DNA from: a virus
Taxonomy: Duplodnaviria > Caudoviricetes
Length of the DNA stretch: 64,000 nt
Direction: 5' to 3' (one strand)
Virus record (IMG/VR): IMGVR_UViG_3300011008_000004
Span: 32,001-96,000 of that record
Shown here: positions 9,491 to 62,599 of the stretch, piece after piece
Layout: each line of letters begins with the position of its first letter
Numbering within the stretch: position 1 is the stretch's first letter
The notes under the pieces: generated by a model
Told to the model about the DNA's origin: nothing
What the model saw: the letters and a program-made list of their open reading frames with translations, nothing else
The model's database searches: none
Made by a program: the position numbers and the translations under genes

Positions 9491-10525
9491 TTACTATTCC
9501 TTAATTATTTTATATTTTAATAAACTATAATATAGCTCATTTAATAATTTTATTTTCTATAAATTATCTGCTCTTGCTAAATAAGTTCTATAGCAAGTAT
9601 AACTGGTTGTGAACTCATTAATAGACTACTTAAAAATCTTTTTCTTAAGTTTTCTTCGTAACTTTTTCAGATACTAAGTTGTAGCTATCTAATAAACTTT
9701 ACCTTTATCATTTAATAAAAATTTAAAACCTAAAAATGTGACTCCCTTATATAGATGTGTGTAACTTGTTTTATCTTTATTTATCTATAAATCAACATCA
9801 TTAAGTTGCTAAGCTATCTTATCTATGTATGTCTAAGGCGAGCTATTAACAATCAATATCATATCATCCATATATCTAATATAAAACTTAACCTTTAAAG
9901 TTTCTTTTATATAATGATCAAGTTTATCTAAATATATCAAACCTAAAATCTAAACCAGCTATGATCCTGCGTTATAACCTATAGCATTATCATTATCGTA
10001 AACTTTTAATATATCATGAACTTTTGAAAAATATTCATCTTGTAATTTCTGTTTAAACAATGCTTCGCTTCTATTATGTCTTATGTTATTATAATACTTT
10101 TTAACGTCTATATGAATTAAATAACCTTTATTATCTCTATAAATTTCATAATACTGCCTTAAAAATTTCTTTAGAGATTGTCTAGCATAATCTGTGCCTT
10201 TATGTTTCTAACAAGCACAATTATAAGTTATTAAAGATCTAGTCATTGTTGGATATATCACTAAATCATTTAATAGTCTCTAATATATTCTATCTCTAAA
10301 TGATATTGCAAGTACTTCTCGTTCTTTTGGATCATGTATTTTAAATTTTTTATGTTTACGCTCTACATATGTATTACTATTTATTTCAGAATATAACTTA
10401 TATGTTTCTTCTAATTGATTTAAAACGTAATGCTAAACTGTTTTCTTCCATTTTACACCGTGAGAACATTTATTGCAACTATCATACAAATTATTAAAAG
10501 TATAAATATTATTAATATCTTTCAT
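9491..10525 (-). CDS. DGR reverse transcriptase, 344 aa in code 15
   Basis: One frame with 13 in-frame TAG and no TAA/TGA until 9491. Motifs: PKERE, FRDRIY(Q)R, CAC(Q)KHKG, IDVKKYY, GYNAGS(Q)LV(Q), YIRYMDD, FLGF. Confidence 0.95.
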
Positions 10526-10692
10526 TGCAGATCAATAAGTATGTAACAATTATGTAACTAATCTTACGTGCAGAATTAATTATCTCACTATAAGACTAGT
10601 TACCTTGTTACACTTTGTTATTAAGAGAGTTAAGCTCCTTTTATGAAAACACAATATAACGTCACTATGTGATGTATCTTTTTATGCTCTAG

Positions 10693-10798
10693 TAAAATCG
10701 GAGAAACGCCATTACTATTGTATGCGTTGTTGTTGTTGAGGTTACCTGAAGTATTCAGATTCCACACATTGTTAGAATTACTACGATTAGGCGATCTA
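10693..10798 (-). repeat. DGR template repeat (TR)
   Basis: AAY-rich (AGA TCG CCT AAT CGT AGT AAT TCT AAC AAT GTG TGG AAT...GGC GTT TCT CCG); differs from 11306-11414 only at adenines plus one codon indel. Confidence 0.96.
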
Positions 10799-10831
10799 CA
10801 GCGACACTCTCTATATTAGACTATTCAAAAT

Positions 10832-11247
10832 TTAATTATTTTGAATACGCTTAATATCACTATTAATCCACTTTAATGGTGTTTCTTTGATATTTAAAAC
10901 ATGACCAACAACATATTCTACACGATTACTCTTAGATGAAAAGCTTTCATGGCAATGTCCCATATAGACAAGAAATCTATGCAATTTTGTATCGCTAATC
11001 TCTATAATCTATATCGTTCATCTTTATTTTTATCATCTAATTTAGTGTTATTCGCTTTCCATAAATTAGTATGAATATCTATTGCTAACTAATTCAATCT
11101 ATCAGTTATAGACGTTTGAAATATTGGCAAAAATATTCTCTAATTCTTTGTTATCTTTAAAATATAAATAGCGAATGACTATGATTCCATAAATAAGTCT
11201 AATGTATTATCACTATTTTTATTACGTTTCCAAGCAGGTACTGACAT
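10832..11247 (-). CDS. avd: DGR accessory protein (Avd-like four-helix bundle), code 15, apparent 1-nt frameshift near 10931
   Basis: MSVPAWKR...WKANN...ERYRL(Q)RLAIQNC...DIAMKAFHL, then KSNRVEY...KWINSDIKR in the adjacent frame; lies between VR and TR; 4 in-frame TAG before the shift. Confidence 0.75.
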
Positions 11248-11259
11248 ATCACCTCTTAA

Positions 11260-11296: not shown

Positions 11297-12940
11297 TTAA
11301 ATTGTAAAAAGCGGAGAAACGCCATAACTATAGTAAGCGCCGAAGTAGGTGCTGAGGGAACCTGAAGTAAGCAGACACCACACAAAGTGAGAACGACTAC
11401 GAGAAGGCGATCTAGTCCAAACATATTGATTAGACGTTTTAGCTGTAACTGACTACATTACACGATTACTATTTGCATCATTTTTTACAACACCACCATT
11501 TTTCCATAACCAATAATCTGTTACAGTGCCTTCATAGCTATTCACTGAACCCGCAAGTTCAGTGCCACTTGGTAGAGTAAATTGACAATATAATTTATTG
11601 TTAGGTAATTCATAGCCACTTCTATTATAAACGCCATAAGCTACATTATCTTCAATACAAGCCAAATCTTCTGATTTCCACCAGTCTTTAAAACCATGCT
11701 TATTTACGTATGAAGTAGCTAATACGTCGCCTACGTGAGAAGATGAAAACCAATCTAAACCAGAACCATTTAACCATTTATATAAATTACTATCTTCAAT
11801 TATATTTGAACCGTATCTCATTAGATTCATAGTTGAAGTGATACCTGAACCTGGAGCAAATGAGTGTTTAAATACGTATTTGCCCTCATTCGTATCTTCC
11901 CAAGTCTGTATACTATCACCAACTTGATAATCTTCACCTTTAGTTAAAGCCGTAAAACTTTGGTCACCTAAAACTTTATTAGTGCCATAATAGTAATATA
12001 AACTATCTTCAAATAATCCTGTCGCTTTTTCTTGTTCCCTTTCATCACACACTTTTGACACCAATGTGTAAGCTGACTGAATTAATGCACCAGTAAACGT
12101 AACATCTTCACCATCGACTTTTTTAATCATGTTGTCAGATACGTCTAAAACTCTAAACGGCATAGTGTAAGAAGTATTAGTATCTGGATCAGTTAATTCA
12201 CAGTCAAATGTAAATGAGTTGTTTTCATTACTTACTAACGCTTCTCTTTTCTACTCTAAAGTTATAGAATCTAAAGCTAAAAATTCTTTTACAGATTGAA
12301 TTGTCGTTATGCTAGATGTGTTATCATAAGTTACACTAACTGTAACATTGTCTGACAACGTACCCTACATATTGATCGCATGTGGATAAAAACAAACAAC
12401 ACTATCTAAAGTTATAGGTGAAGGACATACTACTTTATAAATCTAATTCAATGGTAGTGAGAAATTTATAGGCGCATTAGATGAAGTGCCTACAGCTATT
12501 TGATTATCATTATCATCTAAAATAGTAATGGTTACATCTGTTAATGGTGTTACTACTGAATCAATTAAAGTAGCTAATGACACAGAAAGTGTTCTCTTAG
12601 TTTCGCTTTTTACGTAATCTACAACAGCCTTACTAGTGGGCGTGTTATCATCTGTAGCGTTATCATCGATTTCTACATCAAATAGCTGTGTTGATGCATA
12701 CACTTTACCGCTCTATTCATATATTGTTTTAATATAGCATCCATCTAACCCAACTAAATCTACATTCAAATTGTTTATAGCTGCCTATCTATTTTGCGCT
12801 TCAACTGCACACACATTAATCATTGAACTATCGTCAGTTTTAATGTATAACTCACCTGTTTGCAAATTAACCACAGGTTGACCTATAGCTGAAGCATCAG
12901 CCGGTGTAGGTACACCTCTTTTTCTTCTAAGTTGTAACAT
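11297..12940 (-). CDS. DGR target protein (tail-fibre/receptor-binding, CLec-like C-terminus), 547 aa in code 15
   Basis: AGGAG RBS and ATG at 12940; joins track ORFs 12443-12703 and 11453-12163 through 6 TAG; ends VWTRSP...GVSPLFTI*. Confidence 0.9.
11306..11414 (-). repeat. DGR variable repeat (VR)
   Basis: About 23 substitutions versus TR, all at TR adenines; encodes the last ~38 aa of the target. Confidence 0.96.
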
Positions 12941-12973: not shown

Positions 12974-14131
12974 TTACGGTATTAATGCAAATTTTTTATA
13001 AAATACGTATACCTCTGTTGGACTAGTGTCAGCGTTAGCTGCGTTATTTATAGTTACAGTTATACTACTAGACGCAGTATACAAACTAAAGCTTGTGTCA
13101 AATCCTGTAGTACAAACCTACCAACCTTTTCTAGAACCAGCCATTGAACCATCATAGTTAGGAATTAGTATTACAGGTGATCCCATACTAATAAATCCTG
13201 GATAGCCGTTGTACCATTCTCCACCTGATAGACTCATACTAGCGTTGGAATATCCCGTATACTGATAAACTATTAAGCATTCTTTAAGTCCTAAACTTAT
13301 AGTCTATGTACGAGATGCACATTTAGTCAATGTGCCATTAGCGCCTATTAATGCGCAATATAATGCAGCACTAAAAGCATTAGATACTTGATACGGATAT
13401 GCCCAATTAGGCCAGTTCCAACCATAAGTGTCAGTAGCACCATTATATGTAAGATACGCTTCATTATCAGCTAATGGACCACTTTTAAGTAAGAAATATT
13501 TACGCCAAGTGTACGTACCTTTAGACGTGTTAGCTGCGATACATGAAAATAAATCACCAGTAGATGTATTGCGATATAACTAACCTACAGTTCCAACTGT
13601 AGAAGTTGTTGGATCAGACGTGCCATAAATCAACTAAGATTGTATCTCTGATGTAATAGTAGATTCTAAGTTAGATTTTAAACTATAAGCACCTCCTGCT
13701 GTGAAATATAAATTACTCTCAGATGTAGGCGTATTTGTCTATGCATAATTCGCTACATTAGCTAAACCAACATCAGATTTAGTGATTGTAATATCTGAAC
13801 TTAACGCATGATTATTCACTTTTAAAGCTTTATTAACCTTGTTTTCATCTAATGAATTTATAGATACTTGTAAAGAAGATTCTGCTTGTTTAGATCTATT
13901 TATCTCATTATTTAAGTTATTAGATAATGTAAGATTTAAACTATTTATAGCATTCTAACGGCCATTAGCTTCTATATCACTAACATTTTTAAAAGATGTA
14001 ACACGACCTTGATTATCTTCAGATGTAGCTATGTACAATTCACCTGTGTCTAATCTAACAGCCGGTTGTCCTACATGCGAGAAATCATTAACTGTAGGTA
14101 ACCTATCTTTAAATCTTTTTAATAAAATCAT
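12974..14131 (-). CDS. Tail-fibre-like protein, 385 aa in code 15 (absent from ORF track)
   Basis: Open frame with 6 TAG; N-terminus MILLKRFKDRLPT..VGQPAVRLDTGELYI; TKSDVGLANVAN motif. Confidence 0.8.
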
Positions 14132-14210: not shown

Positions 14211-15305
14211 TCAATAATAGTTAGACCAGCAAAATATAGGTTTACCTTTAATGCTAGTTACTGATATATTCACATTACCTGTAGATACTAGTGAAAATGA
14301 AAGTGTATATGTACTAGATGACGTAGTTATTTTAATTGGTAAATCAGCTTCCCATAAACCTCCACCACCAGCGGCAGAAGCTCCGCCACTACAGTGCATC
14401 ATTAAATCAAAAGACAATCCGCTAGGTAACCAACTTGGTTTAGTATATGAATAAGTTTTAGTTGTAGTCTTATTGGCCGTTACAGATATGATACTACCAG
14501 TGCCTGCGGTCATAGCTATATTCAAATCTAACCAACAAAAACGTCCTTCTTTACGTAAAGAATGATTATCTATGCTTTTGGAGCCAGTAGCGCTGTCAAA
14601 TAGTTGCCAAATATCTACTGACTCCGAATTAAAACCCAAATTAGTTAACCTCGATTCTATAGAACCTTTAGTTGAATCATACCCAGATAACGCTGTCTAA
14701 TTAGCGCTATTTAATGAAAATGTGGTATCAGTCAATGATAAGCCAGTTCCAGCTATATATGTAGTATTAATCCAAGGAACAGTTACATAAGCTTTATTCT
14801 CTGCTCCAAGCTTAACAGCATAATGCTGAGCAGTCTCACTATAACCAATTTTAATACCACCTAGAGCTGTCACAGTCGCTGATGGTAAAGTATAAACAGT
14901 ATCTGTAAATTTTGCATCTGAAGGAACACTTTTAGATATAGTATAACTTATCTATTTTATAGAACCATCACTATCAACATACGTAGGCTATATGGTAGAA
15001 CCTATCATAGGATGTGATGAATAAGTCCCAACTTTTGATGCATAAGAAGAATTAGTTGATTTAAATGATGCGTATGTGCCATCAGTTATTTTAACAATTT
15101 CTGTATCTGTATAATTTTTAGCATTAGATTCCGCTGTATTAGCTCTAGTTATAGATAGTGAATCTACTACACTACAAACATTTTTAATGGTTGAATTATC
15201 TGTTTTAATGTATAATTCACCTGTATTCAAATTCACTATAGGCTGTCCTACATCACTAAAATCTGAAGAAGTAGGAACGCCTTTCTTTCGTCTAAATAAA
15301 ATCAT
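14211..15305 (-). CDS. Tail-fibre-like protein, 364 aa in code 15
   Basis: Joins track ORFs 14988-15305 and 14211-14639 through 3 TAG; VGQPIVNLNTGELYIKTD, YTLPSAT...LGGIKIG and YIAGTGLSL motifs. Confidence 0.8.
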
Positions 15306-15367: not shown

Positions 15368-15397
15368 AAAAGACTGTCTTTTTAGACAGTCTTTTTT
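15368..15397 (-). terminator. Intrinsic terminator
   Basis: AAAAGACTGTCT-tttt-AGACAGTCTTTT inverted repeat. Confidence 0.75.
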
Positions 15398-15405
15398 TAA
15401 TCTAC

Positions 15406-15810
15406 TATTATATCTATCTTAGATATCAAATTATGTAACTCCTATTCTGTAACAGTTACACCTGTGTTTTTAAAATTTCTCAATAAGAGTTGTTTAAATA
15501 TGTACTCATCATCTATGTATGAATCCGTTTTAATGTTAAATAATGCGCTATTAAATTCACTATCAATAGCTACATCACAGGAAATTATTTTGCTATTAGC
15601 TGGATTCTCTGTATTATAGTTGTATATGTGATGTAAATAAATATTACATCCATTTATACACATTAAAACAAATAATATCGTTTCATTTAAATACTAAGAA
15701 TTTATATAACAATCCCTTTTCCACCATAATATATCTTTAGCATTGTGAATATTATTAAATTTAACTTTCTAATCAGGAGTCATATTAGTTAGTAATTCTT
15801 CTAAAGTCAT
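15406..15810 (-). CDS. Hypothetical protein (MTLEE/MTFEE paralog family), 134 aa in code 15
   Basis: ATG at 15810, 3 TAG, TAA at 15406. Confidence 0.7.
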
Positions 15811-16896: not shown

Positions 16897-16905
16897 TAAT
16901 TTAGC
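16897..16905 (-). promoter_or_regulatory. GCTAAATTA candidate phage-specific promoter
   Basis: Identical intergenic 9-mer at six sites upstream of minus-strand genes. Confidence 0.6.
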
Positions 16906-17824: not shown

Positions 17825-18250
17825 TTAGTATGCGAAAGTTATTGTTGTCATACGTAATAGTTTCTTAATATTTTCAAGCGTAAATGATGGTTCTTCATTC
17901 ACGACTAAGTGTAAATTCTCTTTTATGAATATCGCTAATTCATCTGCATCGTGAGGTATTTTAACATCATTTGGATATGTCATATATAATAACGCTAAAT
18001 CTGAATCACTAGCACCTACACTTAACACTTTATGAGAACCTGCATTTACAGATATAACTCTTAGTTCAAAACCTTTTATACAACACAAAACAAACTACGT
18101 GTATGTTTGATAATCTATAATATGATCTGGATCATTTAGTAAATTAGTCCAATTGCCTTCATCGTCAGATCCAAAATTATCTATATCTTTAATTGTTTTT
18201 ACATTATCAATTTCGTATTTATGATCTTTCAAGTATTCTTCAAATGTCAT
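17825..18250 (-). CDS. Hypothetical protein (MTFEEYL paralog), 141 aa in code 15
   Basis: ATG at 18250 overlaps the upstream stop; one in-frame TAG; N-terminus similar to 18247-18693. Confidence 0.75.
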
Positions 18251-18693
18251 TCTTGTGGCTCCTTAAAAATAACATTAGTCATATTTAAAAATTCTAAAAT
18301 AATATCTTTATTTGAATACTTTCTTGTAAAATAAGGCGATAATTCTAGATATAAATAATCTGCTAAACTTTCTTTATCTGTAGGAATGTCATGTCCATCT
18401 ACATTACTATATGTCATTATAGGATACTTTTCATCATCTGCAAAGAATACAAACACTAAGTCGCTGCTATCTTTTTTATCACTAGTTGCAGCATATATCG
18501 GTAATACTTTAATAGTGACGTGATTAGCACAAGCTATCATAAATCTAGCGTACATAATATAAAAAGTCATGTAATCTTGCATAGGACTAGATATACGCAT
18601 AATTTCTTCTTGCCCAAAATTAGTTATATCTTTTGCAGATTTTAAATTATTAAGTTCATCTTTATGTTCATATAAATATTCTTCAAAGGTCAT
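18247..18693 (-). CDS. Hypothetical protein (MTFEEYL paralog)
   Basis: ORF track. Confidence 0.7.
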   Translation of the reverse strand: MTFEEYLYEHKDELNNLKSAKDITNFGQEEIMRISSPMQDYMTFYIMYARFMIACANHVTIKVLPIYAATSDKKDSSDLVFVFFADDEKYPIMTYSNVDGHDIPTDKESLADYLYLELSPYFTRKYSNKDIILEFLNMTNVIFKEPQE

Positions 18694-19537: not shown

Positions 19538-20224
19538 TTAATTCCTCTTGTATTCACTCTTAATGTCAGCTACGCCATCTGAACATCTAACTCTAGTTCC
19601 TAAATCAAATATAGCTTCAAATTTAGCATTTAATATATTTCTAAAATCTTCACAAGTCCCATCATAATAAACATCTGAAGTATCGTAACCTAAGGCGCCT
19701 TCACCTATATAATATATAGATATTGGAAGACTTAATTCTCTTAAATCTCCACAACTGTCAAGACAATGTATACCTAAGTGTTTAATAACGCCAAGATCTA
19801 TTTTACTAAGTTTCTTACATTGATGAAAAGCGTCTTCTCCTAAAGAAATAGTATTAGTTAACTTTACGTTAGTAAGATTGTCACATCTACAAAAACAAAA
19901 GGCAGGAATAATTTCCTTATTAGCTACGAGTCTGTTTATATTACTATCATTTATAGCTTCACAGTCATAAAAACATCCTATAGGAAGCGTAGTCTTATTA
20001 GTAAAATAATCTATCACATCAATTCCTGCAGACATTAGAAGGTCTGTTAGATAACTACAAACTATGCCTTGTATACAAGCAAATTCTCTAGCGAAAGTAT
20101 CTACATAATCGCTACCAACTAACTTATATAATTCTTCTAAGTCATTCTTATTTAAAGCTACTTCAGCACTTGGAACTTCATCAAAAAATTCACTGAATAT
20201 TTTAAGTTGTTTTTCATTTAACAT
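19538..20224 (-). CDS. BspA-type leucine-rich repeat protein
   Basis: Repeats I...AF..C..L..I.L. Confidence 0.8.
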   Translation of the reverse strand: MLNEKQLKIFSEFFDEVPSAEVALNKNDLEELYKLVGSDYVDTFAREFACIQGIVCSYLTDLLMSAGIDVIDYFTNKTTLPIGCFYDCEAINDSNINRLVANKEIIPAFCFCRCDNLTNVKLTNTISLGEDAFHQCKKLSKIDLGVIKHLGIHCLDSCGDLRELSLPISIYYIGEGALGYDTSDVYYDGTCEDFRNILNAKFEAIFDLGTRVRCSDGVADIKSEYKRN

Positions 20225-20261: not shown

Positions 20262-20882
20262 TCATAATTCAATAATCCCATCTAAACATTGAATTTTACA
20301 CGTTTTAGGAATACCGTAATCCCATTCATACTTCTTATCTACATCATTCCACTCATCTATAGTGCCATCAAATATAATACTATTTAATTTTTTACAATAA
20401 TTAAACGCATAGTCATGAATAGATTGCAAACCCTTATGTAAAATAACTTTAACTAAGTTGCAATTACTAAAAGCATAAGAATGGATATATTTAACACTAC
20501 TTGGAATATCAATCTCAGTAAGACTATAACATCTAGAAAAAGCTTCAGATCCAATACCTTCAAGTTTATCATGTAATCTTATCTATTCTAATTTATGACA
20601 ATCCATAAAAGCGCCACGAGAAATAAATGTACAATTATTTGGAATCGCTATCTAAGCAATATCACTCTCTAATAGAAAAAAGTCAGGAACATTGCTAGTA
20701 TACAATAAAGGATCAATTCCTGCTTCAAAAAATAACTCAGTAAACTAGCCAATATACTGCCAATATGATTTTTTATAATTATAAATATTCTCATATAACT
20801 TATCAAACTAATTACTGTTCAATAAACTATAATTAGGTTCTTCGCTTAATATGGTTTGTATGTCAGATTGTGATAAACTCAT
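20262..20882 (-). CDS. BspA-type leucine-rich repeat protein, 206 aa in code 15 (absent from ORF track)
   Basis: 4 in-frame TAG; AGIDPL motif; IG.EAFSRCYSLTEIDIPSSVKYI-type repeats. Confidence 0.85.
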
Positions 20883-30273: not shown

Positions 30274-30756
30274 TCACAAATAAATAACTTTAGTCTCTAT
30301 CGGTTCTGAAACAAGATTACATAATTTACATGTAACTTTAACAGCCTCTTCAGCACTATGTCCAAGATATAACGCAGCTAATGCGAAATCTCTTCCAGAG
30401 CCAATAGCACTAAAATCGTTAACCCTTAAAACTTCAAAACCGCCGATATAAAATACTTTTGATTTATAAATCATTATATAAGAATTATCAGATTCAAAAT
30501 CAAGATAACTTTGTTTCCACTTACAAAACTCATACATAAAGTCTATAATATCTTTTTCAGTGGCATCTGCAGGTTGGTGTGTTTTAGCAAATATATTTAA
30601 TAAACCAAATTCTCTAATATAACCACAAGAACCAATAATCATATTATTAATTTCTGTTAATTTACACACTTGTTCTTTAGTATTACCTCTTAAACCAATT
30701 GTATCAGCAGAAATCTCTATTTTATCTTTATAAACTTTTACAGCAACAACGCTCAT
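30274..30756 (-). CDS. Ntn-hydrolase / HslV-proteasome-subunit-like peptidase
   Basis: N-terminal SVVAV..AD, AIGSG..FALAAL. Confidence 0.7.
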   Translation of the reverse strand: MSVVAVKVYKDKIEISADTIGLRGNTKEQVCKLTEINNMIIGSCGYIREFGLLNIFAKTHQPADATEKDIIDFMYEFCKWKQSYLDFESDNSYIMIYKSKVFYIGGFEVLRVNDFSAIGSGRDFALAALYLGHSAEEAVKVTCKLCNLVSEPIETKVIYL

Positions 30757-30757
30757 C

Positions 30758-31081
30758 TTAAACCTCTATTTTTAAGAATTCATCTACACTTAAATTCTTA
30801 TCATCTATATAATAATCGGCGCCAACTTTACGCCCTGCTTTTCCAAATCTAGCAAGATTAGCGTCAGTGTGGTCATTTATATAATCACATATTAAACCAT
30901 ATGACTTCAAAAATTCAACTGCCTCATCCAATAATTCATCAGTTCTACAAGTCCAAAGAACTATAGTATGACCCTGTTTCTGTAAAGCTATAGTCTTGTT
31001 TATAACATCTAATTTTGGTGAACCAATTGCTGGATAAGCATTATTTACTAATGTTCCATCAAAATCTACTGCGAAAATCAT
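30758..31081 (-). CDS. HAD-family hydrolase
   Basis: AVDFDGT, WTCR, YIDDK. Confidence 0.85.
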   Translation of the reverse strand: MIFAVDFDGTLVNNAYPAIGSPKLDVINKTIALQKQGHTIVLWTCRTDELLDEAVEFLKSYGLICDYINDHTDANLARFGKAGRKVGADYYIDDKNLSVDEFLKIEV

Positions 31082-31083
31082 TA

Positions 31084-33019
31084 CTAATCAATAACCTCAA
31101 TATTAAGAAGATTATCTAAAGAACACAATAAGAATTGTGAACCTTCAGAATCTTTTTCTTTAATAGCACCCATGCTAATCAACGCTTGTTTAGTAATAGG
31201 CGTACCATCTTCAAGAAAATAACTAGCAGTTCCTGCAGATGGATTAGCGAATTGAATATATTTCTTTTCAGGATCTTTCTTATTTTGAACTATACCAACA
31301 TAGTCTGTCTTTTCAAACCAAGATGGTCTACTTTGAATTCCTTGTTCAAGTCTTTCTTGTAATTTTTCTTTTACACCTGCAATATCTTCATAGTTAACAC
31401 CAAATTGTGCTTCTATAATAGAATGCTTAATAAATTTAATACCTTTAAGACCTTTCTTGTCAGATCTCATTTCAATTCTTACTTTATCACCAGATTGTAA
31501 CTTTTTTGCTAAAACTTCATTTAAATTCATAATAACACCTCTTTAATTTTATAGTTTAATTATAAACCATTTCATCAAATATGTCAACTAGAATTACTTA
31601 TTTAGATACTTCTCTTTATTTAAACATCTTTCGCATGTCTTTCTACAATCATCTAAAAAGAAATGCATGTCAATAACTGCATCAAATGCACTATTATTTT
31701 GTTCTATAAATCTATCTTGCGCTTTACAACCTTTTTCGCATGTAAATCTACAATATTCGTCTTTTTCACCAAATAAAGCTATGATCTCTTCATCGGTTAA
31801 ATTAGAAGTCGTATTCATCATCTATATTACTCTCCCGAAATGCTTCAGTTCTTTCATCGTCACGAATTTCATCTTCATATTCACTGATAGCTCTATCTAA
31901 ATCATAGTTTAAAATAGACTCAGAATACTTTTTAGTGGTAGCTTCTTTTACGATATCTTTAATTTTTTCTCTAAAATAATAACTATCCATATCTTTTTCC
32001 TCGTATAAATTATACAATTCCTGATGTTACGTCTTTATAACTTTTAAATAGATTATCCATAAAATTAGACCAGTAATTATATTTTTCAATATCTTCACCT
32101 GATATAATGTATTTACTATGAACTCTATAATAAAGTCCTTGTTTAGCATCTTTAAAGAATCTTTCTCTAACTGTATTATTAATTATAACACTATCACAAT
32201 AAGATACATCTTCTCTTCCAGTTCTTCTAGCAATAGAAATTTGTTTACTATTATTCTTACGAATTAGTTTAGATGTGCCTTCAACATAATAAACTACCTT
32301 GCTATTTAAGTCTAAAACATTAGCGCTTGGAAGCGGCTTTTCAATGATTTCTGAGGCCTTAGAATCACCTACACGCTTAGAAACTAATTCACTAAATAAT
32401 TTATACAATTGACACATATCGTCCCTACAATTAGCTACTAGCGTATGATCATCTAGCTGTTTCCAATGAGAATTAGCTCTTATAAATCGCATTACTTCAT
32501 TAGCATTAAGTTCGAATTGCTTATAAATGTTTAACGTATCTCTCATCTTATTATCAGATAAGAAAAATATACGATTTTCATTATCATATCTAATAAACAT
32601 TATTCAGCTCCTTTAGGACCTTGTGGACCTGGATCATCTAAATGTGTAGGTTTAATATCTAAAGCTTTTTTAAGCTCCATCATAGAGTAAGCATACTGAA
32701 TTTCTTCTTCACTGCTAAATGGACACTTATTATTTAATATCTCAGGACAATCTTCTTGTAATTTACAATAATAAGTTTTTTCTTTAGTTTTAAAATCTAT
32801 AATACAACCTAAACCTGGACACTCTTTATCACATTCAATGTCTTTAGTTTCAAATACTTCGGGATGTGAAATATACATTTGAATCATGTTCTTAAATGCA
32901 GGAGTTAACATATTTAATTGTTCTTCATTAAACACTAGTTCTCCTGTGGAATCATATGTTAAAGCACTAAAGAATTCTTTTAATGCAGGTAGGTTAATTT
33001 TATCGGGATTATATTCCAT
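31084..33019 (-). other. Five hypothetical genes
   Basis: ORF track; promoter TTGACA-17-TATAAT at 31559-31587. Confidence 0.65.
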
Positions 33020-37623: not shown

Positions 37624-37641
37624 TAGTAAATTTAATTATTT

Positions 37642-39420: not shown

Positions 39421-40526
39421 AGAAGTCTAAGTCCTTCATTCAGAATATTTATTGCCGCATTCTGATCTCTATTATGATGTGTTCCGCAATCTGGACAAGT
39501 CCATTCTCTTATAGAAAGAGAATTTACAATATCTTTGTGATAACAACCACATTCAGAACAAACAATGGTTGTAGGAGTAAATCTTCCTATTTTAACTAAT
39601 TGTTTTCCTTGAGATTCTAATTTCTGTTGAAGTCTTGTTCTAAAATAACCAAAAGCATTATCCATAGTTGATTTTCCTAGTCTTAGTGCTTGAGATTGAG
39701 CTTTCATATCAATATCTTCAATACAAATTATATCATATTTCTCTGCAAGTTTCTTAGATTCTTTTTCAATGAAATCTTTTCTTTGATTAGTTATTTGTTC
39801 ATGAATTTTTGCAACTTTAATCTTTTGTTTTTCATAGTTATTTGAGTACAATTTCATATGAGATAACTTACGTTGTTCTTTAGCTAATTTTGGTTGAGAT
39901 TTCTTGAATAATTTTACAAACCCCTCAGGTTTATTGTTTTGGCTATCAACATAAAACTCTGGAGCGCTGTAATCTAATCCAACTGCTTTATTTTTGTCTA
40001 ATTTTATTTCAGGTATTTCATACTCATATTCAGCAAGAATACTTATGAAATATTTACCTGAGTTTGTTTGAGAAATGGTTGCTGATTTTATAATGTAATC
40101 TTGCGGAATGAATCTATGTTCAACAAATTTAATAGGTCCAAGTTTGGGAAGCTGGATTCTATTATTAGAGATAATTCTTATTGAATTGTTTACACAATTA
40201 GTAGTATAAGATTTTTTATCAAATTTTTTCGATTTGAATTTAGGAAATCCATTTTTAATATTTCTAAAGAAATTATTATAAGCTGTTTGTAAATGCATTT
40301 GCTCATTAGCTAAAGCTAAAGAATCAACTTCTTTTAACCAATCGAATTCTTCTTTGTATTGAGCAGGTGTGTTTTTGAGATTAACCTTATCTTTCTTATA
40401 AGCCTCAATTTTATCAGCTAACATCTTATTGTAGATAAATCTACAGCAGCCAAATGTTTTTTGTAGTAATATTTCTTGCTCTTTATTTGGATACAGGCGA
40501 TATTTGAAACATTTATTCATGAACAA
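39408..40526 (-). CDS. tnpB: RNA-guided endonuclease TnpB
   Basis: KYRLYPN HTH; RuvC D/E/D intact (GLDY, IEDI, RDQNAA); CSECG...CPDCG Zn finger. Confidence 0.95.
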   Translation of the reverse strand: MFMNKCFKYRLYPNKEQEILLQKTFGCCRFIYNKMLADKIEAYKKDKVNLKNTPAQYKEEFDWLKEVDSLALANEQMHLQTAYNNFFRNIKNGFPKFKSKKFDKKSYTTNCVNNSIRIISNNRIQLPKLGPIKFVEHRFIPQDYIIKSATISQTNSGKYFISILAEYEYEIPEIKLDKNKAVGLDYSAPEFYVDSQNNKPEGFVKLFKKSQPKLAKEQRKLSHMKLYSNNYEKQKIKVAKIHEQITNQRKDFIEKESKKLAEKYDIICIEDIDMKAQSQALRLGKSTMDNAFGYFRTRLQQKLESQGKQLVKIGRFTPTTIVCSECGCYHKDIVNSLSIREWTCPDCGTHHNRDQNAAINILNEGLRLLYNQ

Positions 40527-40783
40527 CTTCCTTACTAAAATAAAAATAGCTTATTTGATTGGCGGATCAAATAAGCTATAATTACTCTATATCAAACTAT
40601 TGCTAGTTTAATAACATTATAATATACAATATTGATTCCGCCAAATCAACAATAATCATTTCTGATTACAGATAATTTAGCTAATAAAATACATAGAAAA
40701 ATACCGAAATTCAAAGAATATTTCAAATCATCTAAAGCAATTCATCCGATGACTGAAGTCAAAGGATTTCCTGCTGAGTTAGG

Positions 40784-42073
40784 TTAAATTTCATACATTT
40801 TTACTGGACAATCTTTTAAAATATCTACAATATCGTCATACAATAAAATTGGTTGTTCTATCAATTTATCTTTAATAATTTCTAACAACTTTCTATTATT
40901 TTTTAATATTTTAGTAGCTTTATTGTAGAATCTATGAATCTGTCTAACAACTTCATCATCTATTCGTTTGCCACGACCAAAATCATTTCTTCCAGTAGCT
41001 CTCATATATTTAAAGCCATTAACACCTAAAGCACCAATAGCTAAATCCATATTATTTTTTAAATCTTTCAGATCTGAGAATGTACCTAAATCTATATCTT
41101 TAAATATAAGTTCAGTAGCAGCTTTACCACCTAAATCTATAATACAATTAGTAGCATAATCTTTATAGCTATAATTACATATTAAATTTTCTTCTCTCCA
41201 GCCATCACCTTTTAATGTAAAACCTCCAATATTACCACTAACTACATTAGATATCATATCTACTTCGCCACCTAAAGCTAATGCAACTATTGCATGACCA
41301 GCTTCATGATAGGCTGTTCTAAGCTTAGATTCTGAAGTAGCTTCACCATATGTCTCTCTAGTTCCTAAGACACCATGTAATAAAGCCTCTTTAATATCTT
41401 CTTTAGTAATGTATTGTCTTTTAGCGAAGCCTGCACTTAAACTTGCTTCAGATATAACATTCTTTAATTCAGCGCAACTTCTATTGCGCATAATTCTAGC
41501 AATTAAATCTGCTGGAACATCTAACTTATATGATGTGTTACTTAAATAATAATTTATAATAGCTAAAGCATCTGCATTATTAGGCATATCGAAATGCATA
41601 TGTCTACCTAATCTACCTGCTCTTTTTAAACTATAAGGTAATACGTCTATGTCATTAGCTGTAGCAACTACAAACACATCTTGATCCTGTAAATTATCCA
41701 AAATACTCTGAATAACGATAAATTCTTCATCATTATAGCGATCTTCATCACTTTCAGCGAATTTATCTAAATCATCTAATAATACAATTGAGGGCTGATT
41801 CTTTATAGCTTCTTCAAATGTAGCAGTTATATACTCTATAAACTTCTCATCTGGTTTATCTTTTCTAATAATATAACTATTACGTTTAGATTCATATAAA
41901 AGTGATTCAGCGGCTAGTGTTTTGCCCAAACCAGGTTTGCCATAGATTAAAATAGCTTTTGGTAAATCTACACAGTATTTCTTATATTTTGAAGTATGTT
42001 TCAACATATCAGCTATGCACCTTAAGTCTTTCTTAAAACTTTCATAGCCAATAATTCTATCAAATTTATCCAT
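40784..42073 (-). CDS. Soluble FtsH-like AAA+/M41 protease
   Basis: GKPGLGKT, RAGRL, AYHEAGH, LGGKAATE; no N-terminal membrane segments. Confidence 0.85.
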   Translation of the reverse strand: MDKFDRIIGYESFKKDLRCIADMLKHTSKYKKYCVDLPKAILIYGKPGLGKTLAAESLLYESKRNSYIIRKDKPDEKFIEYITATFEEAIKNQPSIVLLDDLDKFAESDEDRYNDEEFIVIQSILDNLQDQDVFVVATANDIDVLPYSLKRAGRLGRHMHFDMPNNADALAIINYYLSNTSYKLDVPADLIARIMRNRSCAELKNVISEASLSAGFAKRQYITKEDIKEALLHGVLGTRETYGEATSESKLRTAYHEAGHAIVALALGGEVDMISNVVSGNIGGFTLKGDGWREENLICNYSYKDYATNCIIDLGGKAATELIFKDIDLGTFSDLKDLKNNMDLAIGALGVNGFKYMRATGRNDFGRGKRIDDEVVRQIHRFYNKATKILKNNRKLLEIIKDKLIEQPILLYDDIVDILKDCPVKMYEI

Positions 42074-44080: not shown

Positions 44081-45181
44081 TTAATTCATTTTTCTTAAGT
44101 AATCACATATAAAATTATGTATATCACCATTCATAACTGCTTGAATATCGCTAGTCTCAAATCCTGTTCTATGATCTTTCACTAGTGTGTAAGGACAGAA
44201 AACATATGATCTTATTTGACTGCCCCATTCAATTTTCTTTATAGGACCTTTTAAATTTTGAACTTCTTGTAATCGTTCTTCCTCTTTCCTTTCTGCTAGT
44301 AAATTTCTAAGCATACACATTGCTTTTTCTTTATTTTGCAACTGACTTCTTTCTTCCTGACATTCAGTCACTATGCCTGTAGGTTTGTGTAAAATTCTAA
44401 CTTTACTTTCAGTTTTATTTACGTTCTGTCCACCAGCTCCAGATGATCTACAAGTTGTAATTTCTATATCTTCTGGCCTTATAATCATATCACTATCATC
44501 TTCAAGTTCAGGCATAACATCTACTGAAGCAAATGACGTGTGTCTTCTTCCACCAGCATCAAATGGAGATATTCTAACTAATCTATGAATACCCTTTTCA
44601 GCTTTTAAATAGCCATAAGCATTTGTGCCTATAATTCTAAATGATACAGATTTTAGTCCTGCAACTCCATCAGCTAGTCTATCTATTTCTTCTAGTTTAA
44701 AATCTTGTTTTTGACAGTAGCACATATACATTCTATAAAGCATCTCAGTCCAATCACAAGCCTCTGTACCACCTTCTCCTGAATGTAATGTTACTATAGC
44801 ATTTAAGCTGTCATACTTGCCATTTAATAGTGTCTCTAAATGCAATGTATCTACTGCTTTTTCTGACTCTTCAAGCATCTTAGTTATTTCACTTATTATA
44901 TCATCATCTTCAACAATCTCTAGCATTTGAAGTAAATCTATGACCTCAAATAAGGTCTTATGAATACTTTCATAACGATCTACAAGACTTTTTAAATTTG
45001 ATAACTTCTTAGAAATTTCAACTGACTTGGAAGCATCAGACCATACTGCCGGACTTTCTAATCGTTGACAGTACAATTCTATATTATGACGCATATTATT
45101 AAGCTTTTCTTCACTAATAGAGCTATTTAATAAGTCTATAGCCTCATTAGCTCTTTGCTTTAATTCATCAGTTACTAACAT
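44081..45181 (-). CDS. prfB: Peptide chain release factor 2
   Basis: SPF specificity motif ([10 protein letters not shown]), [11 protein letters not shown]; continuous ORF. Confidence 0.96.
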
Positions 45182-47789: not shown

Positions 47790-47818
47790 ATTATACATTA
47801 TAAAAAGAAAATAGTCAA
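47790..47818 (-). promoter_or_regulatory. Sigma70-type promoter
   Basis: TTGACT-17-TATAAT after a terminator hairpin. Confidence 0.8.
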
Positions 47819-48646: not shown

Positions 48647-50062
48647 TCAATTAAAAACTATGCCTTCTATATTAGAAGCAGTATTAGCATGATTCACATT
48701 ATTAATGGTAAAATATATAGGTTTATCATTGATACTACCAGCAACCGTAGCATTAGTAGCTACTAAAGTAGCAGTATTATCCCCTTTTCTCCAAACATCT
48801 GTGTCATCTACAGGGGCTACGTTCACTTTTAAATTCCCAGTCATAGTGCTACCTGATTTATAGACAAAATAAGTACCTACAAAATTATTTACCCAAGTTT
48901 CAAGATATTTTCTATTTACTACGCCTTCATCATCTTTAGGGGCCGACATTACTCTAGCTGAGCCATCTTCATAAACTTCAAATGCATTACTTTGTACACT
49001 TCCAGCTTGAAGGCCGTTACCTACAATAAAATACGCGCTATTATTTTCTTTATTACTAATGCCAATTACTGTTTGATATGGCCTTGTGGCTTTTAAGTTA
49101 TTACCGAAAGCAAAAGACGCGAATTGAGACGCTGTGCACGCATTTCCACCAGCAAATGAACTCTCCCCGCTAGCTATGCATGCATAACCTTGCGCGTGTG
49201 AATGTTCTCCACTAGCTATAGTAGACATACCTTCTGCGTGAGCACCTCTTGCAGTTGCTTGAGTGCCATCACCTTCTGCGTGCGCCCAACAATTATCAAC
49301 GCTAGTCATATTAGGGTTTCCAACTATACAGTCACCGCCTGTAGCAAAAGCCCCACGTCCATATAACGTATTACCAGAACCTAACGCAACACTTCTTTCA
49401 CCGTTTACAGTATTACCTTTACCTAATGCCGCAGAATATCTATCATTGATAACATTGTTAACTCCTGCTATGAATGATGCCTTGCCTTCATTGTTATTGT
49501 TAACTCCTGATATGAATGATGTCTCGCCTTCATTATTATTGGACTTCCCATTTATAAATGAAGCCATACCATTATTGCTGTTACCAAAGCCACTAACTAA
49601 ACTCGCAACGCCTAAATTAGGATCCATAGCACTGCCATTTATGTTATTCGCGCCAAGAACCATACTTGAAATCCCGTAATTACCATTACTTACATTAGTA
49701 GTGATTCCTAAACCTGCAAGAATATATCTAGTAGAACCTTCTTGTGTTATAGGTCCATCAGCAATCTGCTCAGCCATTGCCTGTGTCATACCTTGTGATA
49801 CAAGGTATGCAACTACCACCGGACGAATATAAGCATTTAATTCTACATAAGAAGCTCCTTTCTACACAAGCGAACTAAGACCCACACCATTCTATAAATT
49901 ATCATTATTAGATGTAATAGACTCTAATAAATTTAACTATGTAGAACCATCACCTATATATAACTTATTCTCGGTCTTATCATAAAATGGCTAACCATCA
50001 AGTAAACGCAAGGTACTGCTTTTTCTTTTCTCTGAGGTACCTCTCATAATCTAAATTGACAT
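48647..50062 (-). CDS. Tail-fibre/adhesin with Mtd-N-like anchor and YadA-head-like repeats, 471 aa in code 15
   Basis: MSI(Q)IMRGT...DG(Q)PFYDKTENKLYIGDG extends the track ORF by 81 codons through 5 TAG; AHAEG and SxAxG 14-mer repeats. Confidence 0.85.
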
Positions 50063-50210: not shown

Positions 50211-50244
50211 ATTTTCAATTTATAAGTAATTTAGCCACCTAAAG

Positions 50245-50892
50245 TCACTTATTTTCTTCTAATTTTACTTCGCCTTTTTCAACTTTTTCATTGAACTTAA
50301 TTGCATCATATATTTGTTTTACATTACCGCCAGATTCTTCAATATCTTTTTGAACATCTTTTAAGGTGATATCTAAACTATCGCAATAAGCTTTAATTAC
50401 TTCAGCTCTTTCTTCATCGGTAGCTTTATCCCATTCATCATCAATCTCTAAACCAATATCAGATAATAGTAAACCATCTAAAACATTAACAAGTCTTTGC
50501 ATTACATATGCTGTTAAACCTGTCATCTTTTGAGTCATCCATTGACCTAAAGGCGTACAATATTGAACTTCAATATCAGTATTTCTTGGAATGATATATT
50601 TCTTACTCGGTAAACAAATATCTTCTTCTTTAGATATCGTTAAACCTGTTACTCTTGATATAAATGGGTTTATATAAGTTATAGGTTGTTTATCTCCAAA
50701 TTTAAGACAAATAATTCTATTTCTATAACCTATTTGTGGAGCAGCTAAAGCTGTTAACTTTTTAGCTTCCATAACTTCTTTAATCGCTAAAATTGTTTCA
50801 CGCATTTCAGCATTTTGTTTCTTTGGATTTATCTCATCACATCTATCTGAAAACTTATCGTAATCTTTTATAGCATTAAGAATCTTCTTCAT
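50245..50892 (-). CDS. Peptide deformylase-like protein with degenerate active site
   Basis: LAAPQIG and INP retained; EGCLS replaced by EDICLP; QHExxH replaced by QRLVNV. Confidence 0.75.
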   Translation of the reverse strand: MKKILNAIKDYDKFSDRCDEINPKKQNAEMRETILAIKEVMEAKKLTALAAPQIGYRNRIICLKFGDKQPITYINPFISRVTGLTISKEEDICLPSKKYIIPRNTDIEVQYCTPLGQWMTQKMTGLTAYVMQRLVNVLDGLLLSDIGLEIDDEWDKATDEERAEVIKAYCDSLDITLKDVQKDIEESGGNVKQIYDAIKFNEKVEKGEVKLEENK

Positions 50893-57318: not shown

Positions 57319-57669
57319 TTAATTTTCATAAAATTTACCTTTTATATGTATTGCTTTACTTAAATCATATGGGATATTAGCATCTAATGCAAACTCTGGA
57401 AATGGTTCTATTCTATATTCTATAAAATGCTCTCGTAATAATTTCTTTATCATTTTAACAACAACTTTTGGAGATGCGTCCTATTTAGTAGATCTATCTA
57501 AAAAGAACCACTAACCTGTAGTTAAAATCATCATACTAATATTTTTATTAATTATAACTGCATATAGCATTATATTGTCATCAGACACAAATAATGGCGC
57601 ATACTACACTAACCAATTCACAGCGTTATCAGTTAGACGTAATTCTTCATACTAATTTATCTTTTTCAT
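57319..57669 (-). CDS. Hypothetical protein, 116 aa in code 15 (absent from ORF track)
   Basis: ATG overlaps the upstream TGA; 4 TAG; exactly fills the gap between genes. Confidence 0.7.
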
Positions 57670-59980: not shown

Positions 59981-60038
59981 TTAAGCCTCCACACCATAAC
60001 TAATTTAGCAGTCACGATGTTAATTGAAAACACTAGAC

Positions 60039-60281
60039 TTATTGTCTAGTGTTTCCAAGATATAAGTCTACAGTTGTAGCAAATAAATTAAATAATTTAT
60101 TATACTTTTCGTCTAATGCTTTATAAGCATTTTCATATTCTGCGCATTGTTTTTCTTTTGCTTCAAGTTGTGCTTTCAAAGTATCAACTTCAGTATTCTT
60201 ATTATCTTCAATAATAGGGGTTACTTTTGTTTCTTCATTAACTGTGGTTTTAGTTGCCATCGTTATTCTCCTTGTTTTCAT
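60039..60281 (-). CDS. Small coiled-coil hypothetical protein
   Basis: ORF track; likely start at MATK. Confidence 0.6.
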   Translation of the reverse strand: MKTRRITMATKTTVNEETKVTPIIEDNKNTEVDTLKAQLEAKEKQCAEYENAYKALDEKYNKLFNLFATTVDLYLGNTRQ

Positions 60282-60852
60282 TACTAATATATTCTACAGA
60301 ATTTTCTTCTATTATTTCATCATTTTCATTTAATTTTTGAGTAGTTTTATTTAAATTTAAAGTTTTCATAATACCTTTAACTGCTTCAACTACTCTCATT
60401 CTAGATTCTCTATCTAAAACAGGCGCGCCATCTATGTTAATTTGGTTATTCTGCTGATTAACTACGATAGCCGGTGTTTCATCTACTAATTCAATAGATT
60501 TATTGGCTCTATCAATTGTGGATTGAACCACTGTCATATAATCTAATAATTCTTTATTACTAAACTCTCCTGGCTTTTTATCAAATCTTTCAATCATTTG
60601 ATCGCCAACTTTATCTAGTAATGAATTTAACTTCATAACTCTAACAGCGTTTCTTTTAGCTTGATTTAAGTTGAATAATTTAGTTAAATTTTTAACTTTA
60701 TCTAAATCTTGCTCTTCTATTAAATCATTTGTGATCTTAGCTGTTTGATTATCTAATGGAATAACACTAATTAAATCATCTATAGAAACAGGAACTTGTT
60801 CAGATATTTCTGCTGTCTAGTTTTGTGTTAAATCTTTATTTTCTTCACTCAT
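60250..60852 (-). CDS. Hypothetical protein, 200 aa in code 15
   Basis: ATG at 60852 overlaps the upstream stop; single TAG at codon 12. Confidence 0.7.
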
Positions 60853-61742
60853 ATCAAATTCTCATATATGTTAGACATAGCTTTTATAACTGATTCATCT
60901 AAGCTTTTAATTAAACCACTTTCTCGTTTATTAACTGTATCTACAATAAGTTTATTAAATTCTGCACTTGGAATAAACTTATATTTTATTTCATTATTTT
61001 CTAAAGATATATAAATTTTTCCTTCAAATGTATCAATCTCTGAAATAGTCTTACCTTCTTTCATATCAAGATACAAATCATCGCTATGTATCATATTCAT
61101 ATAATTCTTTAATTTAGTTAAAGATTTCATTGCAACCCCAGAAATTGAGCTGCATTTATCAATTATTCCCATCGTTAAATATCCTCTAATGTCTTACTTA
61201 TAGTCTTTAAAGACTTACGTTTTAATTCTGCAAAAGCAATGTCACTAACAGTGCTCATGTCACGATAATATGATTTTAACGCTAAATCCAATCTTTTTTG
61301 AACTAATGATGCAAATAACTCTTTTGCATCTACATCTATATATTTATTTAAATCATTTATAATATTAGTTATCATTAGAAGTTCCTACGAAATTATAGTC
61401 TTTAAGTATCTTACAAACTTGTAAATAAATAGATTTTACGTTACGTAATTCTGATGACTTAAAACCAATGGTTCTTATAGCCGCATCATAGTCTTTACCA
61501 TCAATATTAACATATTGATAAAGCAATATAATATTTGCTAATGACTTAGTTTCAGCAATTGTTGGAATTCTTATGGTTCTCCCACCAAATATTGCACATA
61601 AATTTAAAAAATTAGGTTTGTCTAATGTATAAGCTAATTCACTTATAGAGGAATACTCTTGAATATCTGTAAGTTTATATAATACAAACATCAGTAAAGC
61701 ATATTGGTCTGTTTCTTTTAATGTACTTAAATTCTTTTTCAA
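60849..61742 (-). other. Three hypothetical genes
   Basis: ORF track. Confidence 0.6.
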
Positions 61743-62599
61743 CTGTCAGTCTCCTTTAATATTTCTGATAAATTATCCTTTATAACATCTTCAATAACTT
61801 TATCAGATAAATCATATTCTGCACTTATCTCACGAATATTAGATGTAAATGCTCTCTTAATCTTTTGCATTAATACATGTATATATGTCTCAAAATCACT
61901 TCCTAAACCATAAGTTATAGAAGGCGCATCACTGTTTATTAAGTAAAATTTGGATATAGCATTCTAAATTCTATCATCTAAACTATTGCCACTTCTTAAT
62001 CTATCAATTTTCTTCTTTTGTTGCGGTGTTAAAGATATAGTATCTATAAACGATTTAACAATTGATATGTATATGTAATGAGCCATACGTGTATTATTTC
62101 CATAGGCACATTCTTTAACTACTTTCTTAAATAAACCAGGCAGTGATCTTAAATATGATCTCACTTCAACTAGTCTCATCTAACCGGCATCAGCTCTTAT
62201 TGGACCAGCCATATAATTTTTAAAGAGTTCAGCAGCTTCTGCATCACCTTCTCTTGTACTAAATCCAAATTCTTGAGCTGCAAACTCACACTTCTTAGGA
62301 TATAACACAGCTTTCATGTAATTAAGACATGATTTTACAGGAGATAAAAACTTTGGATCAGTCTCCGGTAAAAATTGTCTATCAGTAGTCATACGTATAT
62401 ACGTTATATTTGCTAAATAGTAAGCAAACTACTCGCTATAATACTACTTATTAAAATATTTCTTCTTTAGTATTAGCATATAAGCTATCTAAGTAAGTTC
62501 AGTATAAACTCTTTCGATAACTTTAGGGTCTTTACTCATAATATTAGCGTCTACATCTATACATAAGTCTACGAAACGCTACGTTGGTTTTCTAATCAT
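61739..62599 (-). CDS. Hypothetical protein, 286 aa in code 15
   Basis: Joins track ORFs 62180-62392 and 61964-62179 through 6 TAG; start and stop overlap both neighbours. Confidence 0.8.

Follow-up and report, generated by a model that had tools for sequence, protein, structure and literature searches.

How does a phage express its genes when one reading frame after another is broken by the same stop codon? The question is raised by a 64,000-nucleotide stretch of DNA (hereafter the window), bases 32001-96000 of the tailed phage (Caudoviricetes) record IMGVR_UViG_3300011008_000004 in IMG/VR. Translated with the standard code (table 11), window positions 9491-62599 dissolve into short fragments and gaps, and the frames are broken solely by TAG, never by TAA or TGA. 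An earlier note on this DNA had proposed that TAG is read as glutamine, that the recoded genes belong to particular classes, and that the phage switches code while infecting a standard-code host. Having analyzed the whole record, a single 214,257-bp contig whose ends overlap by 99 bp (record class, direct terminal repeats, 100% complete), we conclude that this is in all likelihood a complete T4-like phage that decodes UAG as glutamine (Gln) and whose TAG-bearing genes depend on suppressor tRNAs for their expression.

Reading of in-frame TAG as glutamine

With minus-strand open reading frames (ORFs) of at least 100 amino acids (aa) as the measure, treating TAG as sense lifts the coding cover of the window from 0.724 to 0.862 and that of the whole genome from 0.697 to 0.855, and treating TGA as sense gives 0.735 and 0.714, respectively; treating TAA as sense opens both strands alike, as expected for AT-rich DNA. 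The gain in coding density that the earlier note anticipated is thus present. Within positions 9491-62599, TAG as sense restores or lengthens 14 ORFs, in line with the dozen genes claimed; these had been said to meet their neighbors exactly, and most of them do abut or overlap, at distances of -11 to +49 nucleotides (nt). Across the genome (ORFs of at least 60 aa), 267 in-frame TAG codons occur in 83 of 285 genes.

Alignments of two proteins identify the residue. In the reverse transcriptase (RT) of a diversity-generating retroelement (DGR) in the window, which matches phage RTs across 97% of its length when read through TAG, codons 82, 106, 189, and 192 fall on columns occupied by Gln in 113, 116, 119, and 119 of 119 homologs, the GS-Q motif included, and the remaining nine TAG codons fall on variable columns. 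The terminase, encoded outside the window, carries 14 TAG codons; four of the corresponding columns are Gln in 120/120 homologs and two more in 115/120 and 102/120. Log-odds summed over the TAG columns are +26 bits (RT) and +35 bits (terminase) for Gln and -18 or lower for every other residue. The TAG columns of these two proteins therefore align to Gln, as proposed, and not to diverse residues; relatives have K, E, S, D, or T at the variable columns.

Because database homologs may themselves have been called with TAG as Gln, we compared the DNA of relatives codon by codon. The relatives were gathered by a terminase-based scan of viral contigs; a portal-based scan returned relatives only 20 to 22% identical and was useless for this comparison. 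Three relatives (L017, L019, and L020) translate by table 11 with no gain in cover from TAG as sense, and at the conserved terminase columns the TAG of our phage stands opposite CAA or CAG in all three alike. A fourth (L018) is itself recoded (cover, 0.67 to 0.93 with TAG as sense) and has CAA or CAG at 9 of 12 positions aligned with a TAG of our phage and TAG at one more. A follows 48% of sense TAG codons and 42% of CAG codons, and true TAA and TGA stops are mostly followed by T. Judged from these comparisons, TAG is glutamine, corresponding to genetic code 15. A standard-code phage with pseudogenes or assembly errors, for which nothing speaks beyond the interruptions themselves, is already refuted by the alignments and retains virtually no probability: the interruptions are TAG only and occupy conserved Gln columns, tRNA(CUA) genes are encoded, and a 99%-identical RT and the recoded relative locus are present in independent assemblies.

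Suppressor tRNAs and release factor 2

The earlier note saw no suppressor tRNA in the window, and indeed there is no tRNA of any kind there; an Rfam scan of the window also found nothing. The search of the rest of the genome that the note had suggested recovered two tRNA(CUA) genes, at genome positions 2606-2680 and 163136-163233, and in each the acceptor stem is Gln-like (U1-A72). The second (L006:7136-7233, minus strand) is 98 nt long; after the CUA arm, where the variable arm would be, it has an additional hairpin with a loop, CUUUGAA, resembling a UUG anticodon loop. Terminator-like hairpins flank this tRNA gene on both sides (L006 7265-7295 and 7048-7071), and just upstream of it lies a TA-repeat ending in TATAAATA. 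A further site (L001 6139-6213, minus strand) scores 40.7 bits against the Rfam tRNA model and is uncalled by ARAGORN. A glutaminyl-tRNA synthetase (GlnRS) gene had also been sought, but the genome has no gene of the GlnRS/GluRS (glutamyl-tRNA synthetase) family (PF00749), and charging by a host enzyme must therefore be needed.

The genome also encodes its own peptide chain release factor 2 (RF2), which lies in the window (Table 1). It scores 450 bits against TIGR00020 (prfB; cut-off, 370), RF1 models remain below their cut-offs, and it has the motifs of a bacterial-type RF2, SPF at residue 205 and GGQ at residue 250. Its nearest bacterial relatives, at 57 to 61% identity, are from Christensenellales/Clostridia, a kinship that at most hints at the host lineage.

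Relationship to T4-like phages

The genome has a G+C content of ∼29%, and its minus strand carries essentially every gene genome-wide and all genes in the window. It is that of a T4-like (Straboviridae-type) myovirus, with a portal, a protease, a Gp23-type head protein, a sheath, gp46/gp47, UvsX, and alpha-glucosyltransferase. PHROG matches in the T4-like head and packaging module comprise portal, head maturation protease, major head, and tail sheath proteins, and in close terminase relatives the adjoining genes carry Portal_T4, Peptidase_S77, and Gp23. The window contains mainly nucleotide and DNA-metabolism genes, and its gp46-like, gp47-like, and alpha-glucosyltransferase genes follow a T4-like order; among the genes of the phage, those for AGT, Rad50-like, Metallophos, UvsX, and SbcD-like proteins were identified. 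The lysis cassette was not located in a search for endolysin families PF01520, PF01510, and PF01183, none of which gave a match.

Of 32 relatives sampled around the terminase, 31 have the standard code, and the recoding is therefore recent and derived. The prevalence of the standard code in the clade, like the kinship of RF2, is an indirect hint that the host uses that code. In two relatives from IMG/VR (L040 and L041), TGA as sense lifts cover from 0.87 to 0.93 and from 0.82 to 0.89, and TAG as sense does not; judged from these two, the same T4-like clade may hold TGA-recoded members too.

Distribution of TAG among genes

Sense TAG codons are spread very unevenly: 202 of the 285 genes are TAG-free, against 131 expected under an even spread (chi-square p = 8e-95), and off-frame TAG trinucleotides are alike in TAG-bearing and TAG-free genes (67 versus 66 per 1000 codons). 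Tallied by annotated function, genes for DNA, nucleotides, translation, and proteostasis have 2 internal TAG codons in ∼11,500 (∼0.2 per 1000); virion and packaging genes have 30 in ∼4,300 (∼7 per 1000); and DGR, leucine-rich-repeat (LRR), and endonuclease-type genes have 47 in ∼2,700 (∼17 per 1000). Besides the terminase, the portal gene has 4 TAG codons, a tail protein gene has 4, the prohead protease gene has 1, and endonuclease-type genes have 8 and 11. The DNA and nucleotide enzymes that the earlier note named are all free of internal TAG, and the TAG-free genes include ligA, both nrdD halves, nrdG, ssb, the RF2 gene, and those for dUTPase, dCMP deaminase, a thymidylate-synthase-like protein, alpha-glucosyltransferase, topoisomerase IA, RNA ligase, an FtsH-like protein, deformylase, a PD-(D/E)XK nuclease, Rad50-like/gp46, and Mre11-like/gp47. 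The note's small early-type ORFs lack TAG almost throughout the 591-8623 interval, the exception being a 78-aa ORF (3210-3446) with one. Host-like translation and proteostasis genes without TAG in the window, all on the minus strand, are those for an HslV-family peptidase (30274-30756), the FtsH-like AAA+/M41 protease (40784-42073), peptide deformylase (50245-50892), and RF2.

Within TAG-bearing genes, 84 of 254 TAG codons fall in the first fifth, compared with 120 of 634 CAA/CAG codons (Kolmogorov-Smirnov p = 9e-4, with starts refined). Total “Gln” codons (CAA, CAG, and TAG) number 39 per 1000 in TAG-bearing and 26.5 per 1000 in TAG-free genes, as if TAG were a mutational sink adding Gln at variable sites. 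These patterns bear on an explanation by tolerance, not regulation, under which, once the lineage had gained a suppressor, one-step changes to TAG, from CAG and from other codons, drifted to fixation in genes expressed while suppressor was plentiful and were purged from early and bulk genes, with no gating of expression. We consider this quite possible, if short of an even chance. The standard code of the sampled relatives fits it, as do the presence of TAG on both conserved Gln columns and variable columns, which a mutational sink would produce, the finding that TAG-bearing genes have extra Gln and not fewer CAG codons, and the lack of TAG in abundant late proteins. Drift alone, however, does not predict the excess of TAG near the 5′ end, which a gate acting by early abortion of translation does, and it is the endonuclease-type and DGR genes that are richest in TAG.

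The earlier note had also remarked that TAG is almost never the sole stop and is usually followed by TAA. Genome-wide, TAG looks like the working stop, backed up by another stop one to six codons later, in only ∼4 genes. In standard-code relatives, TAG accounts for 0 of 41 stops, and we therefore rejected the lack of TAG stops as evidence of a code switch. Two first genes of early units end in TAG with a second stop close behind (Table 1), which fits termination at TAG early in infection; two genes are too few and prove little. In one of them, the gene for a denV-like pyrimidine-dimer glycosylase, which is the first after a sigma70-like promoter (9091-9119), homology stops near residue 130, and the TAG at codon 139 is probably the working stop.

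Promoter-like motifs and TAG

Two classes of promoter-like motif provide a classification of genes independent of annotated function. Sigma70-like promoters (TTGAC, 16 to 18 nt, TAnAAT) occur at 25 sites on the coding strand versus 0 on the opposite strand, all of them intergenic and 11 in the window. The second motif, AGCTAAATTA, has 32 to 34 coding-strand copies versus 5 on the opposite strand and no -35-like partner; 26 of its sites lie outside gene cores, in sequence that amounts to only 19% of the genome. Genes whose nearest upstream motif is sigma70-like (n = 151, 21 with at least one TAG) have 1.55 TAG per 1000 codons, and those for which it is AGCTAAATTA (n = 133, 62 with at least one TAG) have 6.43 (Fisher p = 2e-9). 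When clustering of neighboring genes was allowed for by circular shifts, 2 of 283 shifts reached the observed difference, and a comparison per transcription unit gave a Mann-Whitney p of 0.012; for the window only, the values are 1.4 versus 9.0 TAG per 1000. The partition by gene class described in the earlier note thus holds and is backed by the motifs.

In eight standard-code relatives, coding-strand GCTAAATTA is intergenic at 39 of 41 sites, typically 10 to 70 nt before ORFs that match terminase, portal, and prohead protease by size and order, and major head in one locus. We regard AGCTAAATTA as a candidate for the late promoter in this T4-like clade. That it drives both suppressor tRNAs became less likely, as a terminator-like hairpin separates the second tRNA(CUA) gene from the nearest copy.

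The motif association also bears on two further explanations. Under one, genes are split by expression level and not by time, TAG being kept out of high-output genes as suppression competes inefficiently with RF1. Head and sheath genes with no TAG would agree with this, as would the TAG in genes for low-copy products (terminase, portal, fibers, RT, and endonuclease-type proteins). Yet dozens of small early ORFs, surely of varied abundance, are essentially TAG-free, as are the genes for low-copy ligase, topoisomerase, polymerase, and helicase, and the promoter motifs argue for timing, which makes this explanation improbable. Under the other, code 15 is constitutive in phage or host, and TAG-free genes are recent gains from standard-code bacteria. 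Among the TAG-free genes, many resemble host genes (RF2, deformylase, FtsH-like, topoisomerase, and ligA), but so far-reaching a role for ancestry seems very improbable, given that TAG is missing as well from small, fast-evolving, phage-specific ORFs behind sigma70-like promoters, that slow-evolving core genes such as the terminase gene carry TAG at invariant Gln, and that two early-unit first genes end in TAG plus a close second stop. To our knowledge, no bacterium is known to read UAG as Gln.

A proposed model of suppressor-dependent expression

We propose that the phage brings its own supE-like amber suppressors, in the form of the two Gln-type tRNA(CUA) genes, into a host cell, probably clostridial, that would use the standard code. 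Its own RF2, which terminates at UAA and UGA and not at UAG, would come with them. Genes behind sigma70-like promoters and free of sense TAG, which include the small early genes and those for nucleotide and DNA metabolism, RF2, translation, and proteostasis, would be made at once. Full-length products of TAG-bearing genes (terminase, portal, baseplate, fiber, DGR, LRR, and endonuclease-type) would appear only after enough suppressor tRNA had accumulated, and most such genes would be under the clade-conserved, late-promoter-like AGCTAAATTA that precedes them. The most abundant virion proteins, major head and sheath, would be exempt from TAG, probably for the cost or leakiness of suppression. 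We infer, with good motivation, a timed switch of code within the infection.

A stronger version is that TAG acts as a second lock on the late regulon. TAG placed preferentially near the 5′ ends of low-copy late, mobile, and diversity-generating genes would abort translation until suppressor builds up, AGCTAAATTA would be the transcriptional lock, bulk virion proteins would be exempt, and the arrangement would have arisen recently in a standard-code T4-like clade. We put this forward tentatively, as a possibility that on balance we doubt.

Several observations weigh against the proposed model. The major head (443 aa) and tail sheath (464 aa) genes, certainly late, have 0 TAG codons, and because of them the split is not purely one of early versus late; a few helicase genes, in turn, carry one TAG each. 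Several genes under AGCTAAATTA are TAG-free (TnpB, a 399-aa gene, DUF5662, and one LRR gene), and the TAG-rich genes at 61739-62599, 57319-57669, and 20262-20882 are in units for which the nearest motif is sigma70-like or distant. A gp55-like late sigma factor was not found by tblastn of T4 gp55 against the genome or with Pfam Sigma70_r2 and Sigma70_r4, nor did PHROG scans of ten unannotated window proteins show a sigma factor; because of this, the role of AGCTAAATTA as a late promoter is one that we infer. Copies of the T4 late box TATAAATA show no excess upstream of TAG-bearing genes (2/83, versus 7/202 TAG-free genes), the lack of TAG stops is common to standard-code relatives, and with hairpins on both sides of the second tRNA(CUA) gene the timing of the suppressor is not readable from the sequence. 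Finally, neutral tolerance of TAG in late genes would fit the pattern as well as an adaptive gate.

Genes of the window

Table 1. Recoded genes, promoter-like motifs, and other features of the window
Feature	Position	Strand	Length	In-frame TAG	Remarks
denV-like pyrimidine-dimer glycosylase	8625-9059	-			Pfam Pyr_excise; TAG at codon 139, TGA six codons later
DGR reverse transcriptase	9491-10525	-	344 aa	13	Pfam RVT_1; last TAG directly before TAA
DGR template repeat (TR)	10729-10798	-	70 nt		Direct repeat with 11345-11414
Avd-like small ORF	10894-11247	-	117 aa	5	Between target gene and TR
DGR target, fiber-like protein	11297-12940	-	547 aa	6	Variable repeat (VR) at 11345-11414
Fiber-like paralog	12974-14131	-	385 aa	6	Weak tail-fiber PHROG matches
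Fiber-like paralog	14211-15305	-	364 aa	3	
ORF without named function	15397-15810	-	137 aa	3	Exists only with TAG as sense
AGCTAAATTA, late-promoter-like	16897-16905	-			Heads unit of DUF5662, fiber genes, and DGR (16853 down to 9491)
ORF without named function	17825-18250	-	141 aa	1	Paralog of 18247-18693
BspA-type LRR protein	20262-20882	-	206 aa	4	Pfam LRR_5, 3e-27
Early-unit first gene	31081-31530	-			Ends in tandem TAG-TAA
ORF without named function	31594-31905	-	103 aa	2	Needs TAG as sense
Zinc-finger ORF, candidate free-standing homing endonuclease	36159-37448	-	429 aa	11	
AGCTAAATTA	37615-37623	-			Before zinc-finger ORF inside split nrdD
AGCTAAATTA, further copies	39266-39274, 40673-40681, 60001-60009	-			
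Release factor 2	44081-45181	-	366 aa	0	Unit behind sigma70-like promoter 47790-47818
Sigma70-like promoter	47790-47818	-			TTGAC-N17-TATAAT; upstream of ligA, 172-aa ORF, and RF2
phrog_25468 protein	48647-50062	-	471 aa	5	AGCTAAATTA at 50227-50235
ORF without named function	57319-57669	-	116 aa	4	Overlaps both neighbors
ORF without named function	60250-60852	-	200 aa	1	128 aa to 200 aa with TAG as sense
ORF without named function	61739-62599	-	286 aa	6	

The TAG-rich genes at one end of the window include a DGR, comprising the RT, a TR and a VR that differ only at TR adenines (16/16 mismatches, coding strand), and the VR in the 3′ part of the target gene. Four fiber genes had been claimed here; three are supported, as paralogs with a common N terminus of 46 to 69 aa, that of 12974-14131 being 48% identical to the 547-aa protein over 69 aa and that of 14211-15305 being 65% identical over 46 aa. 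The LRR gene named in the earlier note is indeed restored by TAG as sense, and a second LRR gene (19538-20224) lacks TAG. The product of 17825-18250 is 30% identical to that of 18247-18693 over its full length, with the TAG inside the matched span, and 61739-62599 shares 4 nt with each of its neighbors, the gp46/Rad50-like gene on the upstream side and a further gene on the downstream side. No Pfam, PHROG, or NCBIfam match was found for 10894-11247, 11297-12940, 15397-15810, 57319-57669, or 61739-62599, a Pfam search with 31594-31905 gave no family match, and none was found for 60250-60852.

The gene described earlier as an endonuclease (36159-37448) is less certain than that name implies, its matches being to C2H2 and ROS_MUCR zinc fingers only. 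It lies within a split nrdD (35056-38934, minus strand), of which 37642-38934 encodes the NrdD N-terminal part and an intein N-terminal part and 35056-36165 encodes an intein C-terminal part and the NrdD C-terminal part; both halves carry NRDD and Intein_splicing. A 62-aa ORF and the zinc-finger ORF, the latter preceded by AGCTAAATTA, stand between them. The layout suggests a fractured gene in which a split intein is accompanied by a free-standing endonuclease, whose expression would be gated late. Adjoining it is a TnpB gene (IS605 OrfB/Cas12f-like; 39408-40526, minus strand) that is TAG-free and has AGCTAAATTA upstream.

A trxB-like (thioredoxin-reductase-like) gene (33673-34610, minus strand) is present in two frames, an N-terminal part at 34068-34610 and a C-terminal part at 33673-34101, which join as ...SNIAKK-VYVVQ... 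solely via a -1 shift at GCT AAA AAG. Either a programmed frameshift of the dnaX type or an error in a homopolymer accounts for the shift, and the TAG that ends ORF 34068-34607 sits in the out-of-frame tail.

Comparison with known systems

In Escherichia coli, supE (glnV) is a tRNA-Gln-like molecule with the anticodon CUA that inserts Gln at UAG in competition with RF1. Here, the suppressor is phage encoded, comes in two forms, one with the extra UUG-loop hairpin, and faces hundreds of sense TAG codons.

That phages recode stop codons is already established, and the present case adds an example, not a principle. Borges et al. (2021/2022; bioRxiv 10.1101/2021.08.26.457843) described TAG- and TGA-recoded clades of gut phages, with suppressor tRNAs and, in TAG-recoded Lak and Agate phages, RF2; their TAG-recoded (code 15) phages comprise Lak, crAss-like, Garnet, Amethyst, Agate, and Topaz phages and the large clades Jade, Sapphire, and Agate, of ∼150 to 210 kb. 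In the recoded phages structural and lysis genes are recoded and replication genes variably so; the earlier note, too, took it as established that code-15 gut phages exist with recoded codons enriched in late genes. The same authors reported a recoded intron endonuclease in an early gene and variation of the code within clades, and proposed a model of a switch within infection and an evolutionary path in which TAG stops are lost before recoding. Our phage is like theirs in reading TAG as Gln, in its tRNA(CUA) and RF2, in a virion-enriched recoding scattered over several modules, in mostly standard-code replication genes, in having a recoded candidate endonuclease gene lodged within an early gene, and in within-clade variation of the code. 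Genes with in-frame stops make up ∼29% of its total, versus 26% for the Sapphire clade, and the 0/41 TAG stops of its standard-code relatives match the path of loss before recoding. It differs from the phages as listed there in its T4-type head and packaging module. Borges et al. mention none of three features seen here, the association of TAG with the motifs, the lack of TAG in the head and sheath genes, and the 5′ bias, and a word search of their text for promoters and N termini found nothing; these features may be modest additions, resting on one genome.

In crAss-like phages, metaproteomics has confirmed TAG as Gln (Peters et al., 2022, PMC9523058). In that work and in that of Yutin et al. 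(2021, PMC7886860), the reassignment is the same, late genes are recoded, and the standard code is assumed for the host; the differences are that those phages belong to another order, the podovirus-like Crassvirales on Bacteroidota, and are proteomically validated, while ours is known from sequence.

Late transcription in the T4 family (T4, with TATAAATA; Aeh1; gp55/gp33/gp45) likewise uses a short, AT-rich, coding-strand-specific -10-type motif without a -35 element before virion genes, and AGCTAAATTA contains CTAAAT and resembles CTAAATA, the late promoter in the T4-like phage Aeh1 (PMC1524935). Our phage departs from that scheme in that neither a gp55 homolog nor enrichment of TATAAATA was found in the searches above.

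For annotation, the immediate consequence is that table 11 would break up ∼30% of the genes of this phage, including those of the DGR, terminase, and portal. For the biology of recoding, one complete T4-like genome combines a full toolkit, two tRNA(CUA) genes and RF2, with two promoter-like motif classes that offer sequence-level handles on timing, and its exceptions, the abundant head and sheath proteins without TAG and the TAG-rich endonuclease-type and DGR genes, constrain any model. Because the sampled relatives almost all use the standard code, codon changes can be polarized, from CAA or CAG in relatives to TAG here. If TAG does serve as a second lock on late genes, this clade would be a natural before-and-after series of an evolving change in the genetic code.

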